Assembly: GCA_025201805.1 (NCBI GenBank)
Contig: MU619370.1
Coordinates: 30,172-88,004, forward strand
DNA from: Parasitella parasitica NRRL 2501
Taxonomy: Eukaryota > Fungi > Mucoromycota
DNA: 57,833 bases
Direction: 5' to 3'
Shown: piece by piece, positions 6,879 through 41,133 of the stretch
Layout of the letters: each line of letters begins with the position of its first letter
Position numbering within the stretch: the first letter of the stretch is position 1
Notes under the pieces: generated by a model
Told to the model about the DNA's origin: nothing
The model's input: only the letters and a program-made list of their open reading frames with translations
Database searches by the model: none
Translations under genes and position numbers: made by a program

Positions 6879-9800
6879 ATGGGGCTAAAGAAGATATTCT
6901 CGACAAAAGACAAAAAAGACAAAAAAGACAAAAAAGACAAAAAAGACAAGGATAGCACCAGTTTGAAATCTGAAAAGAGTGCTCGGCGTGAATCACCAAA
7001 TACGCTCTCAAGAGCTTTCAGCAATTGGAGTAATCAACAGAAAGAGAGAAGCAAGCTGAAGCACTTGAGCCTGGGGAGCAATCGTTCCATCAGCAGCCAT
7101 AACTTGTCGGCACACGATGCCAAGCGTCTTTCTGAGCCGGTTGTCCCATCCCCATCGCTGTCCCATCAGCTGCCATTGACAAGAGGAAACAAGGTTACTC
7201 AAAACTACGACCAGCAACAAAAGACCCGCCAAACGAAAACAAATCCGTTCGCCGTTACCTCTCCAATCACTCCCTCAGACTCAATGAGAGATGTCAACAA
7301 TGTAGTCAACGTCCTAAGAAATTCAATGTCTTCTGCAGCTTCTTTGTCCACCTTTGCTTCGGCCACTGATGAAGAGAAACACACTCAATACAATACGTCA
7401 CACGAAACATTGGATTCACCAACTCCTGCTGCTGCCAAACAAAAAGATGGCACAAACCCTTTCCTTCAGAGTCATGATCCCAAGTCGGCTGCTGCAGTGC
7501 CACAGAAAAGACAGAGCCAAGTTTCCTTCCCTCTACCAATGAAATTTGACAACGACTCCAACAAGTACGAGCTCTCAGAAGACGAGTATCACGCTATGGA
7601 GCACGGCAATACTGATGCACCAATAACCCCCCCTGAATCTGCTCAATTTGAAACACGTAGCCAAGGTAATTACAATTAAATGTATGTAAAGCGAGCCTAC
7701 ATTTTAACTGGGCGTTAGTTGATAATGAGTCACTCTATGCAGCGCTGCTTGCAATTCAACAACAATTGGATGCAGTGAATCCAAACAATGCAGTGGATAT
7801 TCAAAAACGCCTTGGTGGCGTAAATCAGCTATTGGCAAAAGCACTGGATAACAGTAATCAACTAGAAATACGTCTGAAGTCTGTCATTGACACCTCCAAG
7901 CAAACCATCATAGCCATCGACGAGGAAAATAACCTTCTCAAAACAGCGGATGAAACTACCAAAGCGGAACTTGTGCACATCAAACAGCAGCACCAAGAAA
8001 TAAAAGAGAAACATCAGGACCAATTGAGGATATACCAAGGATTAAAAGATCAGCATGACGGCGTCGTCCAGGAGAACAAAGAGTTACTACAGAAAACACA
8101 GCAATTGCATGCTCAATTAGATCAACATATCGCCACTCGTAAAAACATCTCCTTTTTACTAAATGACGGTAAATCAGCCGAGGGTGAGGGTAATGATCAG
8201 GAGGGGGAGGAGACTAATTTACACGGTCAATTGAAGAAGATAATTGCATTATCAGCCTCGAGCCAGCTGCTAAATAAACAACTTGATGGAAAATTGCAAG
8301 CTGCTACAACGCAGCATACGCAAGAAATACAAGTCTTGAAGCAGACCTTTGAAGCTGAAAAGCAGCAGCATTTGGAGTCTAGAAAGCAAGATTTGGCTGC
8401 GTTAGAAACTGCAAAGGATCAGCAATTGGAGGTGAAGCAGCAGGAACTAGTAGCTCTTCAGATAAAACTAGAGAATGAAAAGGCTCAGGAATTGGAATTT
8501 AAAAATCAAGAATTAGAAGCTTTACAGATCAAAATGGACACCGATGCCAAGACTTTGCAAAGTGTTCACCAAGCTGAGATATATGCCCTGGAACAGGAAC
8601 AAAAGGAAAAGATTGATAATCTGGTTACACATCTCAAAACAGAATCAGATCAACATGCAGCCGCATTAGGGAAAAATCATCAAACTGAAATGCTAGAATT
8701 ACAAGCCAAATTAGAGCTTAAGCAGCAACAAAGAGAAGAGAGCCTTCAAGAAGGGCATCAGCAGGAAATGCAAGAATTAAAGGCCAAAGCAGAGAACGAC
8801 ATCACAGCACTGGAACAGCAATATCAATTAAAAATGCAATCCCTGGAAGCCAAGTACACCTACTTGATCACGGAAACATCTAACAGCATTAAAGAAGAAC
8901 AAGAAAAATGGCAACTAAGAGAGTCAGAATTGCTAAATCGAATTGAATGCCTAGAGGAGTCCAGTAACAAGAACAAGCTGGAACTGGAGTCCTGCACTGT
9001 GCACATGAACGAATTGGAAGAGGAAAACAGTCGGTTCCTGAGCCAAATTGATATCTTAAATAGCAATACTTCGGACCATGTTCAAAAGGTAGCCCATGAA
9101 AATGTTGGTTTCAAACAAGAATTGGAAAGGATGCAGAAAGAGCACCAGGATATAGAAATGCAACATGCAATGATGACAAAGGCCCTGGAATCTACAAAAG
9201 AGGAAAATCTCGGGTTACAATCAACTGTGAACGAGACACAACAACAACTTTTAGAACTCCAGTCTTCGAAAGAAGCTTCTGAAAAGGTGCTAAAAGAACG
9301 CATTCATATGATAAATGAGCAATCTACTCAATCGCTTGTTGAAGCGCAACAACAAAAAGAGAAAAAAGCTCTAGAATGCCAGCAGTTGAAAGATCAACTG
9401 GCCGAAATGGAACAAGTGTCAAGAGAAGCAGCGAAATCAGTAATAAATGAAAATGAACGGCTTGAGAATTGCCTTCATCAGATGGAGGCAAGCTCTCAAT
9501 TAGCGATTCATGAAAACTTAGCGCTGAACGAACAAGTTGAAATACTAAGTAAAAATACGGCTAGAAGGACAATTGTAGCAGAGAATCAGCAACTTAAGAA
9601 TGAACTCAAGATGATGAACAGTATTCGACAAGAGAATGTAAATTTGAGCGAGCTGGTTGAATGTTTGCAAGCAAAAGTGAAGGAACTGTCCATGGACGGG
9701 GGAAAAGCTATTTCGGGAGCCCATAGCAACAAAGACAATAGTAGCCAGCAAGAAGAATTGATGCTTATGCATACAAGAGCACAGCTTGGCTTGATTGAGT

Positions 9801-9949
9801 ATCTGGAAGGGGAAGATGATGTACTGTTAGCCATGTCTAAATTTAAAAAGCAATTAGAAGCCGAAATGAGAGGATTTGGGTCAACGATCAAAAAACAGGA
9901 TCTTGGCTTTATTTCTTCGGTGTCAAATTCCACCAAACACATGCGTTAA
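6879..9949 (+). CDS. Large coiled-coil protein (~1000 aa) with a disordered N-terminus carrying KDK repeats and two NPF motifs
   Basis: Two long ORFs joined in frame by intron 7666-7718 (GTAATT...TAG). Heptad-rich E/Q/K/L C-terminal ~700 aa. Confidence 0.85.
6902..6950 (+). repeat. 9-bp coding tandem repeat (GACAAAAAA)n encoding DKK repeats
   Basis: Directly visible; translates to KDKKDKKDKKDKKDKD. Confidence 0.9.
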
Positions 9950-10737
9950 AGTGAGATGATAATCACATGTAATTTAATATATAAATAACAATAAAAGGGT
10001 GCAACCCATAATTAAAACAAGGGGTTTATTCTGTCGATTATGTGCATGCAAGTATTATCATATCATCATCAAATATTAGAACAGCCTAAATGTATTTATA
10101 TCGACAGAGGGAGTTTATGTATCTCTATATATATATCTATACATGTCGATGAACAATCAATATAATGCACACGTGTATGAAATCACTCAAAATCATGGTA
10201 GATCAGCTTTCATTGTAACATTATATGAATAGAAGCTTAATTTCATATTATTCCAAAAAGTTCTTAGTCTGAGATAAACATTTGTTTTCTTTTCTATGTC
10301 ATTTGAAGTGTCAATATGTGTATTTGAGACTTCAACAAATTGACTATACATAGGCTTTATGCGAGTTTATTTTATGCTCAGGCTTTTTTCGCAACTATCG
10401 TGGCATGTAAACTTGACCTGACTTCATGTGTTCATGTCAAAATATCTGTAGTATCACAGCGGAATCTGCAATGGGTTTCATTCGGAACGTCAAATCGGAT
10501 AAGGCAAAAATCGAGGGGGTTTTTTTTTTTTTCAAAGAAGAGAGATAAACGCTTCAAAACCCTGCCAAAAACAACAACGCAACACGATTAACAATGATGA
10601 AAACGATAAGCCGGATTTGCCTTGTTCGGTCAACCTATAATCATTTAAATACAACTTGATTTCTGTTACAATTTAATTTTTCCTTTCTGTTTTCTCTTCT
10701 CTTCAAATACATCCTTGGAAAAAAAAAAAAATACAAA

Positions 10738-10893
10738 ATGCACCCAATTACCCAAGTTTCTACTGCTACCGCCGCTTACTGGTGTAAGGTATGTGGATCA
10801 AAAGTCCATATGACAAGTAAGTTTCTAGTAAAAGGGTCAAGGGCATAATACTAATTTTGCACATTTCTGATAGTGCATTGTCCAGTTGCCTAA
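10738..10893 (+). CDS. 32-aa spliced microprotein consisting of one CCHC zinc knuckle (MHPITQVSTATAAYWCKVCGSKVHMTMHCPVA)
   Basis: CAAAATG start after a pyrimidine tract. Exon 10738-10816, intron 10817-10873 (GTAAGT...CTAAT...TAG), exon 10874-10893. Splicing completes C-X2-C-X4-H-X4-C. Confidence 0.72.
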
Positions 10894-12789
10894 GATGTAG
10901 ACGAAAATCTACAATGTATAACCTCTTTTTTTATCGCCATCGATTCAACAATATACAAGAATTATGCATTCTCATTTTTATAAAACTAAGCTCTCCCAAC
11001 AAGATATCAATAACAACAACAACAACAACAACAAAAACAGGCACTCTTTCTCTTCTCATTTACTGTGCATTTCATCTCTTCGATGATCACAATACCTATG
11101 CTTCTTCATTCACCTCTGAAACAACAAAGTCTGCATTTATATACATATATAGTTTTTTTTTTTTTCATTTCCATGCCAATCTTATCTTTTTTTTTCTTAT
11201 AAATATTACAATAAAAAACATGCTGCTATGCCTTATGTACATACTAGTCGAACATGTATAAAAGAAAATTTTCGTTGCTTTATTTATTGTTGTTTTTTAC
11301 TTTACATTGAGGTGTGTCTTTGTTATCAGCTTTATTTATAGTTGTACAATAATTCAAATACATTGATATTGAAACTTTTGTAACATGAAATTGCAGTTGT
11401 TTATCAGTCGAAATATAGAAAATGAAAGTGAAAAATAAGGTCGTTTACTTTTCTCATGTTCGAATAGGGTTTTTATTATTGTGTCAAACTTGTACTCCCA
11501 TGTCACTTGTCACCCTTCATCCTTTATGTATATGGAAATAATGTAATGAGATAGGAGTAGGCTCCCCGTCCCCTTCACCCTTTATGTAATTTGAAACAAT
11601 AAAGGATCATGTAAAGAGGGAAAGAGATTACGGACTTCACGTGCTTTTCATTCTTCAGATAAATTGATAGATTGCGACATGCCGTAGTTCTATAAATTTG
11701 TCAAATATAAGAAATAGTTCTTTGTTAATTATTGGTCTGTTAGAAATCGAAATAGTTACCATTCTAAGGTTGATATTAAATATCATCAAGAAGAATGGAA
11801 CTTTCAATTCATTATGGTACCTTATACAAAGCGTTGATATAAATCGAGGTTCAAGTATATTTACAATGTTGAGCAAGATCCATGACTTATTATAAAATAT
11901 TACAAATAGGCGGGTTTCGTCTATAAATTTCGTAGAGTTAGTGTTCCATTAGGTAAAAACTTTATTAAACTGTCCCTCGATTGTTCTCACAATACAATCC
12001 GAATCGGTTGCACTAGAGCAAATAAAAAAAAGATCTGATAACACGCCAAGGTTGACATTTCATAGTATGCTGCACGATCCAGTAACATTATATTTCATCA
12101 GTGTAAAAAAAAAGCAGCTTAATGTCAGAAATACTCATACATACCGCTTGAAATTTTGAATTGAGTATTATCTAAACAGCAACTTGGTACAATAGACTGA
12201 AATTACCATTGTATAGAAATTCATTTTTCTTATCAGATCATGCAAGATAACAAAAAAAAAAAAAATCGATTTAATACCTTATATAGACTTGTGAATGTTT
12301 CTAACCTTCCAAACCCGACCATTTTTAGTACAGTTCAATTACGATTACCTAGACAATTGAAGTAAATTATTAAAGGGGTATCTACTCCATTACAGTATAA
12401 GCAGGAAACAGAGATTACTTTCAAAATAATGGATGCCGACTCATTCACAAGTTTCTTGTTTCGATCTCTATAATAATGAACCGTTGAGAATAGTGATAAT
12501 TACAATTCCAGAGTTCAGGTAGGATCAGTCAATGACTCGATTTCACCATGATTTGGTCCTGAATTGAAACAGACATCCATCAATCTACACGTTGAAAAAT
12601 AAGAGTATTACTTAGATACTTTATGTAATATAGCTAAAATTTGATATGCGTTATGTAACTGATGTTGATTTTTGGAAAGCAATCGTTTATTTTCACATAT
12701 TTAAATGAAGTAGTGTACAAAAAAAGGGGGGGGGGGTTCTACGCAAATGAAAAAGGAATATTGTGGCTAATTAACATATGAACTACAAA

Positions 12790-13594
12790 CTAATGATAAG
12801 CGCTGATACCTAAACATTCAGATACTGTAACAAAGGTATAGCCCTCGGATGTAATATAATCAACCATCCAAGGAGTGAGTTCAACAGCGGAAGACTCATG
12901 AACATCATGTTGAAGAGAGATATGACCGTTTTTGTCAGTCTCAACAACGTCCCGTACAAGCCCTTGTTCAAAAGCTAAACCCTTCAACTCATAATCTTTA
13001 GTATCGATATCCCACAAAATATTGCTGTAACCAAGGTCATTTAATACAACAGAAGCAGCATTATCAAGCTCACCCTCAGGAGGTCTCATAAGACGAGGTC
13101 TTGACGATGACAAAGAATGATTAGCATACTAAACCTGTCAAAATGTAAGAATAAGCTTACCTTTGGCCTATTGCTTGATAAATGAGATCAGATTGCTGGT
13201 TCATTTGATATTGGACTTCTGCAGTTGTTAGGCCTTTGAGTACCTTGTGCTCATAAGTATGACTACCGATTTCATGGCCCAGTTCGTGGTAATATTTAAG
13301 AACATCAGTGTAAGACTTGATGCCATCGCTTGTGCTGGTTGTAGCTGTGTCGAAATTTTCAACCCAATTATTACCATTTGTAAAGAAAGTAGCCTTGATA
13401 CCCTTAGAATGAAGATATTTAGCGAGATCCCACGAGTATTGGAATGGTCCATCATCAAATGTCAAGGCAAATTGACCAGGCTGGACACAGTGATTATAGG
13501 TAGGCACTGAGGAGGAAGAGTGTCTATTAGTAGTGGGAGCAGCAGAAGCAATGGCGGCTAATGTAAATGCGATAATAGAGGTGAATGCTTTCAT
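12790..13594 (-). CDS. Secreted polysaccharide/chitin deacetylase (CE4, NodB domain), copy 1
   Basis: Signal peptide MKAFTSIIAFTLAAIASA; motifs TFDDGP, HTYEH, RPPEG, DTKDY, LQHD; intron 13100-13160. Confidence 0.93.
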
Positions 13595-14426
13595 TTTAAA
13601 TTGTTTTTGAAAAATACACAATGATGGTGATGAATGAAAGAAGCTTCACTTTTTGACATGTATTTATACTTATCGAAACTATTTTTAAGCAAAGCCCAAA
13701 TGGCTTCGAGTTGCACAATACACAATGCGAAGCTACGTTACAGAATTTATGCGCAATCTGTCATCGATTCTAAATACAAGTACGAAGAATAAGTTTTCAA
13801 ATGGATATTTTGCGGTATCTTGAGGAAAATAAAAGCACTCGATTCCTGAATTCATCAGGCTGTAAAAACATTACACCATCAGTGCGCATTTTGCCTACAC
13901 AGACTATAATATATAATGTGTTGTCTATTTTTGTCGCTTTAGTAACTTAAGAGAACATGGTGCAGACGCCCAATGCATACTATTTATAACAACAGCGCAT
14001 TTGTGACCAAAATTATACAAATAAAGCGCACTCGACAAAAAAAAAATATGATAAAGTATAATCAGCCTCATGAAGAAAGATATTGTTTAAAGTATGCACG
14101 TACACCATAAAATATGTAATGTGGCTCAACAGTTCAACTTGAATAAACCTCCAGCAGGATGAAACGTTTATCTACCGTTCCCTATTGCATTTCTATAAAA
14201 AGCACAAGTCAATGCTATAATTGTACATTTCGTCATATTATCACAATTCTCAAGAAATACAAGATTGGCAAGAAATGTGTTCCGGTAACCACCAAGAACT
14301 CTATTCTTACTTTATATAGAAAACTTGATTTACGCCACCTTTGTATGTATTGATTTTAAAGGAGAGGGTGTAATAATTTATTCATAAATGTTTAATAGTA
14401 TACAAAAATATGGTTTGCTACGTATA

Positions 14427-15279
14427 TTAAGCGACTGGATGATAGGCATCCACACCAATACAGTCAGATACAGTGACAAATTGCAAACCTTTCTCTCTGA
14501 CATATTGAGTCATCCAAGGAACAAGTGTATTCACAGTACTAGCATGAATGTCATGCAAAAGACTAATGTGTCCCAGTGTTGTTGGAGTGTCAGCATCCAT
14601 AATTGTTTGGACAATGGCTTGTTCAGCAGCTAATCCACTCAACACCCAATCTTTAGTATCAACATCCCACATAACATTACTGTAGCCAAGCTCTTTTAAT
14701 ATTCTGCTTGCGCTATCATCCAAAGCACCCTCTGGTGGACGCATTAACTGAGGTCTTCTCCCGGTGGCGGCAAATATTACATCTGATTGCGCATTCATTT
14801 GTCTCCTCACTTCAGCCTCTGACTTGTTTGCTAGGTTGAGATGTTCAAAGGTGTGGCTTGCAAGCTCATGGCCACTATCATAGTAGTATTTGATAACTTC
14901 CAAATAAGTCTTCATGCCATCCGAAGTGTTAGTAGGCGTGTTATTATTGAGAATATCACTGATATGTATTATACACAAGATAATTAGAGATAAGGATATA
15001 TATGATTCAGCTTGTAAATGCATCAATTTCTTACACTGTGTTATTGCCATTGATAAAAAAAGTTGCTTTGATGCCCTGCTGGTACAGGGACTTTGCTAAA
15101 TCATAAGAGTACTGGGAAGGACCATCATCAAAAGTAAGAGCAAAGACCCCAGGTCTGTTACAATGATCGTAACGAGTAACTAAGGAACTGTCAATTGTGG
15201 AATTGGTAGTAACAACTGGAGCAGCAGCAGCAAGCCCGCTCAACATCAACGCAGTAAGAGTCAATACAAGACAATGCAT
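14427..15279 (-). CDS. Secreted polysaccharide/chitin deacetylase (CE4), copy 2
   Basis: Signal peptide MHCLVLTLTALMLSGLAAA; motifs TFDDGP, HTFEH, RPPEG, DTKDW, LLHD; intron 14959-15034. Confidence 0.93.
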
Positions 15280-16495
15280 GATTTTGGATTTGAATATATA
15301 AATTAGATGTTTGGGTATGTGTATTTGTTGAACTAAGAATAAAAATGAAAATCTTATACATGTATTTATACTTTCCCCACAATTTGTGAATTGCATGTCA
15401 TATAAAGTATCTATCAGAAGAGTCATTTGATTTTTTTTTCATAAACCACATATCATAGATCTTCCTTCTTATTGCAAAGCCCCGGCCTCTCTTTCTTCGT
15501 CTATCATATAAAAAAGGATTCCAAAGCCATATTATGCACAATAAAAAAAAATACAAAACACAGTGTTTATATATATACACCCTGCGAACTTTTTTTTAAG
15601 AAAAGTATAGACACGATATGTGTATAAAATAACTTACTCTATTGCTTTGTGAATAAAACTATCTATAATACATACATCAAATACTTTAATTTTGATGATT
15701 TTTCCTTTACAAGCTAAAAGAGATCTACAGGATCAACTTGTGTTATAAGAACTGAAATCTAAACTTAGGTTTTGCTGTTGTATCAACAAATAAAAATGAC
15801 TTTGGCTTAAACTTTATTTGTCAAGATATGGTATCTGCTTTCAGCCTCCATGATGATACAAGCCCAAATCATAAAACTCAATTACGTATAATCAGCATCA
15901 TTATGCACACCGTTTATTTTAGGATTTGCACAGCCATAATAATTTTCGTAGCAAAGTAAGTTAATTTTGTAAGCATATGTATCTGTAATAGAAAATCACT
16001 AGACTTTTCACTGACTGTGGCTGCGAATGTATTAGATCAAAGGATAGTTTATTCAGATATATATTTGTAAAAAGTATCACAACATCTGGGCATTCAGAAG
16101 GTCAATCATGAAAGGTAAATGTAGAATTTAATATTATATTTAAGATGTATCAATTTTGGCTGTAAAGCAAGTTCGCGCATTCTATATATCACAACTCAAC
16201 GAGAGGAGACGTTCACACAGCAGTGAAACTCTTGTTTGTTAGACCATGTCTAAATTCGAGAAAATTCAAGTTATTCTCCCGATTTGCACATAATTTACTC
16301 TGTTTAAAGAGCATTTATCTCATGCGTACTTTTTTTTAAAAAAATTTCTGAAATTGGAATATGAGGTTTGAAGCCCAAAAGCTGCAAAAAAAAGCTAGCC
16401 AATAGTAGCAGGTGAAGGGAACTTGAATATATTATAAGAGAGCAGGCCTTGGCTGTATCTCTATGCTTAGTAGTTTGCAATTGCAGATTATGCCT

Positions 16496-34552: not shown

Positions 34553-34562
34553 NNNNNNNNNN
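34553..34562. other. Assembly gap (10 N) following a poly-T run
   Basis: Directly visible. Confidence 0.99.
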
Positions 34563-38570: not shown

Positions 38571-41133
38571 TTAGTTTGGACCACTAGCTCTACGATACAT
38601 ATGTTGATCTTGTTGATGACGAAAATTGATTGCATATTGCTGCTGTTGTTGTTGTGCTCTTTTTTGTTGCTGCTGCTGTTGGTGTTGCTGCTGCTGCTGC
38701 AATAATTGTTCGTCCGTGATATAGGAAGTGGTAGGAAATACATTGGTTTGTTGAGAGGCGTTTTCCAGTTGATACGATGTAAACATATCATGATTTTGTT
38801 CGTCGGGCTGCTGTTGAGGCTGAGTTGAAGACACAAACTGCTGCATCATTTGAGAGGACGACGATGATGGTAAACCAGTAACTGAGGATGGTCTCGAAGG
38901 ATGCTGTTGCTGTTGCAGAGGATCTCTAAATGTATTATATCGTTGCTTGCCTATTTGCAATATGTAAGTGTGATGGTATCATCAGCAACAACTCGATTTT
39001 CTTACCGTCGTTTTCATCCATTATATTTTGCAATTGAGAGAATGTGGAAGGATATGCAGTAGGACGAACAATAGGTTGTTGCTCGATAGGTGGACCGCGA
39101 GGCATTGAAATAGATTGAGCTCTCATTACTGTTGGAATCGACGCACCAAATGTGACAGAATGAGGTCGTTCTTGTTGATGGTTAATAGAAGGTGATCTCA
39201 CGGGCGGTTGATTCATAAAAGAAGGGTCGTATATCATATGTTGTGGTAATTGCTGCTGCTGTTGTTGCTGTTGCTGTTGTTGTCTACTGTTACCGCTATT
39301 ATTTGCACTTATTGTAGGGTATACGTTATCTACTTGAGGAGAGAACGATGGCTGATGATGAGATGTAATAAAGTTACCACTATGCGCCGCCGCCGCTGCC
39401 GCCGCTGCTGCTGCTGCCACAGACATGGAGCCATCTTGGTTATAAAACAAATTTGGACCAGTTGCAGAAGATGTTGGAGCGATACGGTTTGGTGTTGAAG
39501 AGTTATATTGTGTGTGCATTAGTTGCTGTTGCTCCAGGTTGATATCATTAGGTGTGTTTGTGGTAATTGATGGTGTAAACATCATCGTTTGAGAATTGGA
39601 AGGTGAGGATTGAGTTGACATATCATCTAGTTCATCATCCATAATCGAAGAAGCAATCTGACGAGATAACTTTCTAGCAGGTGTGTCCAAATCCATAGAC
39701 TCATCATTGTCTTCTTCAGGTGCAAATAACGCTCTTGATCTTCTTCTTCGTGGTTCTCGATGATGCTGTGCTGAATACTGTAACATTGGATTTGGGTTTG
39801 ATGGTCTTTGCATATCGAAAATTGCCCGCCTAATGTCTCCAACTGAATTTTGACTGTACATCTTGACATGGAGGGCATGCTCCGGAATAGGTACGGCTAA
39901 GAAGCCTTTAGGTATGGTTTCGAAAGACTTCTTTTGGTTGATGGCAGAGGGTCTTTGTATCTATATCAAGAAAATGTGTTATTATTAACCATTACTACAT
40001 ATTTATAAAACAAGGACAAAAAAAAGCATACATCTTGGCTAATTGATTCTTCAGTCTTCTTGGAGCTACCGCTGTTTGTAGGACTATTACTGTTGCTTTT
40101 TTCCTCACGCTTACTTGCGCTGCTCATTGAAGCCCTTTTTAATCTGTTGTCTATTTCTTCGTGTAGTACAGAAAATGATGATGGATTTGCTAGCGTAGTC
40201 GTTAAAGCTGTAACGGGATCTCCTAAGGTAGCAAATGGCATAGGTACAGGCATCGTCATTGAGTTGCTATTAACATTGGCAAATTTGCAAGTATCCTCCA
40301 AAAGTGCAAGCAGTTTATTTTCCACATAGTGAGACAAATCTTCGCTGCCAGCATTGACCATGCAAATTTGAGCGCTGAGGTTGACGAGACGAATTGCCCG
40401 TAGTGCTGTATCACGTTGTTTCATCTTTTGACGTTCCTCTGAAAGTCTGTTATAAAATCTACGATCGTCCCAAGAAATATCAGGGTACTGTTCACGCACT
40501 CTTTGTCGAATCTCGTTTGTTGGAAGTCGTTGCCGTGCTAATTCGAATATCTTTTCAGATACTTCTCGAGGCCATTCTTTCTTTATTTCATCTGGTTTTA
40601 ATAGAGGATGGTTGTGAATAAAGGCATCAGCGTTTTGAGATTTACGAAACTCCCAAGTTTCTTGATTGTTTTCAAATAAAACAATACGCCAACGGCATTC
40701 GCATCTTTGAGATTGTCGATTTCTTTGTGGATTTACTTTTGGGTTTCGATGAGAATCGGGTAATCCTTCTCTTGAGCAATAAACATATATATTCTAAATG
40801 TATTATTAGCATACGCGCAGTTATGTGTGTATTACCCCCTCCCCCTTTTTTGTAGTCGTTACCTTGTGAGTACTTTGCTCTTGTTTGACAGTAAATCCAT
40901 GATTTGAACACAAATCTCTGCAGAAAATAATAGCCTCCGTATTCGACTTAAATGTTCTTGATAACAGCGTATCGTAAAATGTATCCAACTGGTCAAAAAT
41001 CATTAGTAAATGTTCTTTCAATGTGTATATTGATTATATTTACTGAATAAAATGGTTTGTCTGGGCTGTGATTTTGTGTGGGAACAGGGCTACCCGAGTC
41101 GACAGAGGTTCTTGTATTCTTTGATGTTGACAT
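38571..41133 (-). CDS. Transcription factor with a FAR1-like (WRKY-GCM1 superfamily, Mutator-derived) DNA-binding domain and Q-rich C-terminus
   Basis: F.S..EA..FC..HGFTVK..NIYVYCSREG..RCECRWRIVL..WEFRK..IHNHPL zinc-binding pattern. GT-AG introns join the ORF pieces; polyQ and polyA tracts. Confidence 0.82.

Follow-up and report, generated by a model that had tools for sequence, protein, structure and literature searches.

Neighbourhood, transcript and splice structure

The window analysed here is a 57,833-nucleotide stretch of contig MU619370.1 from Parasitella parasitica NRRL 2501, and all positions refer to it. A short spliced transcription unit lies on its plus strand, between a coiled-coil gene and a pair of chitin deacetylase genes. 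The upstream gene (6879-9949, plus strand) encodes a coiled-coil protein of about 1,000 residues, with one intron near 7664-7717 and no Pfam domain; the 234 residues searched are 88% identical to a P. parasitica hypothetical protein and 56-58% identical to Mucor proteins. Four relatives were found, from Parasitella, Mucor or unnamed sources, and the N-terminal KDK repeat is longer here than in these relatives. Downstream, and convergent with the unit, two tandem polysaccharide (chitin) deacetylase genes occupy 12790-13594 and about 14369-15438 on the minus strand. This pair shows very high contig depth in the RNA run described below (X1), and the X1 joints between the two genes look like paralogue assembly chimeras. 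Elsewhere in the window, ORFs on the minus strand at 38935-40793 have a weak FAR1 DNA-binding match below the cut-off and possibly represent a gene derived from a MULE transposase; a run of 10 N at 34553-34562 marks an assembly gap.

The features of the unit are as follows.

10498, 10544 and 10605 (spanning 10498..10609), plus strand: three GATAA words, possible GATA-factor sites (motif scan, post hoc)
10636..10641, plus strand: TATA-like element, putative core promoter (from the motif; no ATG from there to 10738)
10712..10737, plus strand: 5′ leader, covered by the X1 RNA contig and A-rich 5′ of the ATG
10738..10816, plus strand: coding exon 1, residues 1-26, including Cys16, Cys19, Gly20, His24 and Met25
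10817..10873, plus strand: spliceosomal intron of 57 nt, GTAAGT...TAG, with a branch-like ACTAAT at 10850; removed in X1
10874..10893, plus strand: coding exon 2, ending in the stop; residues 27-32, among them Cys29-Pro30
10894..11215, plus strand: 3′ UTR containing (ACA)n and T-rich stretches; X1 contig as far as 11135, with a further 40 letters in a repeat that was skipped; an AATAAA begins at position 11210

An ATG at 10738-10740 opens a plus-strand ORF that consists of a 79-nt exon 1, the 57-nt intron and a 20-nt coding exon 2, with a TAA ending at 10893. The product has 32 residues (3.5 kDa). Its potential zinc ligands, Cys16, Cys19, His24 and Cys29, form a C-x2-C-x4-H-x4-C motif with Gly20 after the second Cys and Pro30 after the last, and three residues and the stop follow the fourth ligand. 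An earlier note, made from the letters of the DNA alone, had proposed this ATG, intron and 32-residue product, and all of its coordinates were reproduced exactly, as were the precise motif spacing that appears after splicing and the stop three codons on; the branch-like CTAAT that it described is the one within ACTAAT. The intron interrupts the zinc motif 20 nt upstream of the stop. Its length is a multiple of three and it holds two in-frame stops, a weak point since all three frames contain stops. The start context is A-rich and similar to the one around the start codon of the chitin deacetylase gene at 13594. Among 11 AG acceptors tested, two complete the CCHC spacing, the second being AAG at 10959, so the fourth Cys alone is less surprising than had been claimed.

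Evidence for the transcript comes from X1, the single public run containing the stretch, which belongs to one study and is possibly the source material of the window itself. X1 is not recorded as RNA and was taken as such from its predicted type and its intron-skipping joints; between 6000 and 16000, GT..AG introns are missing from its contigs and intergenic DNA is uncovered. A 413-letter contig aligns to 10712-10816 and 10874-11135 with no mismatches, at a depth of 248 and with 105 letters on the shorter side. The predicted join of 10816 to 10874 is thus present precisely, the intron (10817-10873) has zero depth, and X1 contains no alternative acceptor, the use of which had been considered as a way in which the motif might be broken. 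The X1 contigs carry neither strand nor level, and the plus strand is deduced from the orientation of the intron. No paralogue at 80% identity is present in X1 or in the window.

X1 cover is absent from 10008 to 10675, and the contig of the upstream coiled-coil gene stops at 9873. Because of this uncovered gap, we regard the knuckle RNA as separate from the coiled-coil mRNA, and the RNA contigs likewise support the proposal that the gene is independent of its neighbours. The description of the surrounding 2.8 kb as empty did not hold, since a weakly covered spliced RNA occupies about 11503-12680 on the minus strand (contig depth 3-7, GT..AG introns at 11690-11820 and 12349-12418, no ORF of more than 33 codons). 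This RNA, which converges on the knuckle gene, is either an lncRNA or chitin deacetylase read-through.

The 32-codon ORF is overlapped by a 137-codon ORF in another frame, from an ATG at 10791, and might be a uORF that regulates that frame (137 or 115 codons, from 10791 or 10914 to 11261), which is open across the same junction. However, the longer ORF has a coding log-odds of -44.9 and low complexity, as expected of non-coding sequence, and no Pfam match. Moreover, the RNA contig ends before its stop, and the AATAAA lies at 11210. We consider the likelihood of a uORF to be close to negligible.

Chance occurrence, coding potential and knuckle features

The motif is the sole CCHC match in the window, spliced or unspliced, on both strands, and no spliced match and two unspliced ones turned up among 60 Markov copies of it. 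A null set of 9,120,000 simulated non-coding 413-nt transcripts was also generated. Of these, 2,000 had the motif in a sense frame, 468 in an AUG ORF and 93 in the first-AUG ORF; the microprotein ORF likewise starts at the first AUG of the spliced transcript, as defined by one run. Combined with the Gly and the Pro, the motif was found in any sense frame in only 2 of the 9,120,000. For one transcript, the motif is far beyond chance, at about 1 in 100,000 in the first-AUG ORF, a per-transcript figure that is eroded because the find was picked out of a very large scan. The GC content of the ORF is 0.458, as compared with 0.28-0.33 in the flanks and intron, and 2.5% of non-coding windows reach that value. 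Codon-usage tests were not significant, with 14%, 11% and 8% of 7,066 overlapping non-coding windows scoring as high.

These results bear on the possibility that the unit is a spliced lncRNA, or a young or decaying gene, in which the ORF carries a functionless motif. Such an RNA would fit the codon-usage scores, the second acceptor that completes the spacing, and both the atypical free positions of the knuckle and the lack of a detected homologue that are described below. Intergenic lncRNAs are reported from Mucorales in the hundreds, most of them with poor conservation (10.1101/2025.10.01.679568, partial text). It is opposed by the rarity of the motif under the null, greater still with the Gly and Pro, and by the first-AUG position, the start context and the raised GC content. 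Furthermore, no RNA family or fold was found, as the 3′ UTR shows no unusual fold (z -0.38) and no match in Rfam. We consider an RNA with a functionless ORF to be unlikely, and the unit is probably a real microprotein gene for a variant knuckle, its function being predicted only.

A zinc knuckle is defined by its four ligands and the distances between them (PMC9100697, PMC11702985; both partial text), and the CX2CX4HX4C ligand spacing of the CCHC knuckle (ZCCHC / PF00098) is found in the spliced product. The peptide is therefore a candidate member of PF00098 by its defining spacing; a Pfam scan of the unspliced frame and of exon 1, both without the fourth ligand, returned no zf-CCHC, and the best match was C1_2 below the cut-off. 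Of four secondary consensus positions described for wheat knuckles (PMC9100697, partial text), two agree, namely Gly20 after the second Cys and Met25 after the His. At the other two, which are typical and not invariant, Lys17 stands where a hydrophobic or aromatic residue is usual and Val23 where a Gly usually precedes the His. The peptide has a single knuckle, a net charge of +2 and two basic residues only. Tyr14, Trp15, Met25 and Met27 would make up a hydrophobic face, and Cys, His and Met together account for 9 of the 32 residues, including a His-Met-x-Met-His-Cys run.

The earlier note had suggested a free RNA-binding regulator, and a translated knuckle might indeed bind single-stranded RNA or DNA directly through a guanine pocket, as do Lin28 and nucleocapsid. 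In Lin28, the residue that follows the first Cys and one other residue flank each guanine; in knuckle 2 these two are His and Met (PMC3759924, partial text). The exact spacing of the fungal motif is consistent with direct binding, Met25 matches the Met of this second Lin28 pocket, and Tyr14-Trp15 could stack on a base; in addition, most characterized ZCCHC proteins act on RNA (PMC11702985, partial text). However, the fungal peptide has the pocket Met only, with Lys in the place of the His or Tyr of Lin28 and of the hydrophobic or aromatic residue of wheat knuckles (PMC3759924, PMC9100697; both partial text). The lack of an aromatic residue after the first Cys, the Val in place of the conserved Gly, the net charge and the presence of just one knuckle weaken the suggestion, and we judge direct binding to be distinctly unlikely.

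The high content of Cys, His and Met would also suit a peptide that buffers or senses a metal, zinc or copper, in a metallothionein-like role. Two features of the locus point the same way: the three GATAA words upstream, and the neighbouring chitin deacetylases, which are metal-dependent enzymes. Metallothioneins, however, show Cys-x-Cys clusters, whereas this peptide has only three Cys, in exact knuckle spacing. In a count made post hoc, none of the other 120-nt non-coding windows (710, overlapping) contains three GATAA words, and the window as a whole holds no excess of the longer ATCNGATAA word (5 occurrences against 3.5 expected). The accessible text of PMC10616654 gives no GATA-site consensus. 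We regard a metal-buffering role as quite improbable.

Homology searches and the knuckle ORFs of phage contigs

Homologues were sought with the unspliced frame or exon 1, in collections without a Mucorales genome. A word-based search with the unspliced frame found no homologue. HMMER against 1.84 billion representatives gave five matches, all long repeat proteins of 489-661 residues and none homologous, and an Atlas search, with a best score of 0.83, also found no homologue. PDB sequences gave weak zinc-finger matches only, and nothing in Pfam or PHROGs exceeded the cut-off. A pattern built on exon 1 had no match in metagenomes and three in viral contigs, of which the two translated are short unrelated frames. 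Searches for synteny by way of the upstream gene recovered no locus in the metagenome or prokaryote collections, and a search for gene order with a chitin deacetylase exon gave no match at a strict threshold. These blanks carry little weight, because exact look-up in the 15-billion set also failed to find five of five phage knuckle ORFs.

The knuckle pattern matched 61 loci in prokaryote genomes, mostly off-frame or with stops, a few being of the phage-type family. Viral and bacterial contigs yielded 21 stand-alone one-knuckle ORFs of 17-45 residues, which are pattern-selected and not all real genes; one type recurs in three contigs, in two of them behind a clear Shine-Dalgarno-like leader. 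An alignment of 14 two-knuckle ORFs (A2) retrieved 321 relatives from 405 candidate stretches in viral contigs. Among the matches listed by a knuckle scan, 108 distinct knuckles have a Met at the second position ahead of the first Cys, and 13 of them lie in ORFs of 40 residues or fewer. An unnamed phage family of one- and two-knuckle CCHC microproteins includes L026:1486-1680, L007:1495-1575 and L030:1483-1575. When 12 phage knuckle ORFs were scanned, only L005 rose above the Pfam cut-off, and the best PHROG E value was a weak 0.001. Knuckles are stated not to be found in bacteria (PMC11702985, partial text).

The best pairwise match between the fungal peptide and a phage ORF covers 11 of 16 residues and came from a pattern built on the peptide itself. 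At the free positions, the peptide did not resemble an unbiased set of 66 representatives (p 0.41, with scores this low in only 6% of members), and the agreement with 39 representatives seeded from the peptide-based pattern was modest (p 0.009); in both sets, it scores below about 95% of members. Judged by their sequences, lone knuckles appear to exist as small genes in phage contigs. Their likeness to the fungal peptide is one of design, with kinship not established, because the free positions are unmatched in the unbiased set.

These searches also address whether the peptide could be a captured retroelement Gag or phage knuckle that serves as a decoy against mobile elements. The rank-5 Atlas cluster is viral and carries zf-CCHC on 40% of its members (score 0.82, a lead only), and the 11 of 16 identities are with a phage two-knuckle ORF (L026, L040). 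However, that match reflects the pattern from which it arose, and the unbiased profile was negative. In addition, a scan of 26 frames of the window found no retroelement domain, the locus is not repeated there, and an intron lies inside the motif. A captured decoy thus seems very improbable, and nothing was found in support of the dominant-negative competition with retroelement Gag that had been raised earlier.

Predicted role and comparison with known systems

Summed over the readings, it is quite likely that the peptide is made and used. The role that we favour, tentatively and at a little short of an even chance, is that of a zinc-folded docking module acting in trans on a protein or ribonucleoprotein. 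We infer that the first ORF of this separate spliced gene is translated to the 3.5-kDa peptide, in which Cys16, Cys19, His24 and Cys29 are predicted to coordinate a single zinc ion as the centre of the fold. The hydrophobic face would then contact a partner, either a protein or a ribonucleoprotein and probably one involved in RNA metabolism, and the peptide might be an accessory subunit or might compete with the knuckle of a larger protein. Alone, it would bind RNA weakly at best. A docking module is favoured over a free RNA binder because the peptide has no aromatic residue after the first Cys, no second Gly and only two basic residues. A knuckle that binds protein is known from Air2p, in which ZnK5 binds Trf4p (PMC3384339, partial text).

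More broadly, a conserved gene with an intron might exist in Mucorales that encodes a free knuckle of 32 residues, which would control, in trans, a complex for RNA processing or silencing, and some of the conserved or essential transcripts annotated there as 'lncRNAs' might be genes of this type; we hold this extension to be doubtful, though a serious possibility. If the proposed role is true, the peptide would rank at or near the bottom of the size range of folded zinc-finger proteins in eukaryotes and would offer a clean test of the abilities of a lone knuckle. Mucor is genetically tractable, and the peptide is synthesizable.

To our knowledge, eukaryotic CCHC knuckles have been described as parts of larger proteins. 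In a literature search that left most subscription papers outside its reach, no eukaryotic gene consisting of a lone CCHC knuckle was found described, and the literature on knuckles, micropeptides, small ORFs and ribosome profiling in Mucor, Parasitella, Mucorales and fungi likewise described no such gene. The fungal product shares the exact spacing, the Gly and the hydrophobic residue after the His with the knuckles of Lin28, Air1/2, CNBP/Gis2 and retroviral nucleocapsid. By contrast with those ZCCHC proteins, the entire product is 32 residues long and comprises a single knuckle; an aromatic residue does not follow the first Cys, the His is not preceded by Gly, and basic residues are few. Some retroviruses have processed single-knuckle nucleocapsids, but the fungal knuckle is not cleaved from a polyprotein.

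The phage one- and two-knuckle ORFs (A2; L007, L008, L030, L026) share with it the C-x2-C-G-S-x2-H-x4-C-P core, the stand-alone form at 17-70 residues and, in the short ones, a charge near +2, whereas they belong to prokaryotic viruses and differ at the free positions. Haloferax volcanii has one-domain zinc finger micro-proteins encoded by genes of less than 70 codons, and deletions of these genes gave phenotypes (PMC6562870, partial text). The fungal gene resembles them as a one-finger gene of less than 70 codons; theirs, however, are archaeal, with a pair of C(P)XCG motifs and no intron, and no sequence link was found.

Closest in setting are the intergenic lncRNAs of Mucorales, studies of which filter transcripts by coding-potential tools (10.1101/2025.10.01.679568, PMC10769135; both partial text). 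Judging from these methods, standard coding-potential filters would likely call the fungal transcript non-coding, and an orthologue may therefore sit in the catalogues that they produce. The locus would thus provide an RNA-supported example of a gene class likely misfiled by annotation and lncRNA pipelines in early-diverging fungi. Like the catalogued lncRNAs, the fungal RNA is a spliced intergenic transcript of more than 200 nt; unlike them, it has a first AUG that opens an ORF in which a metal-binding motif is complete.
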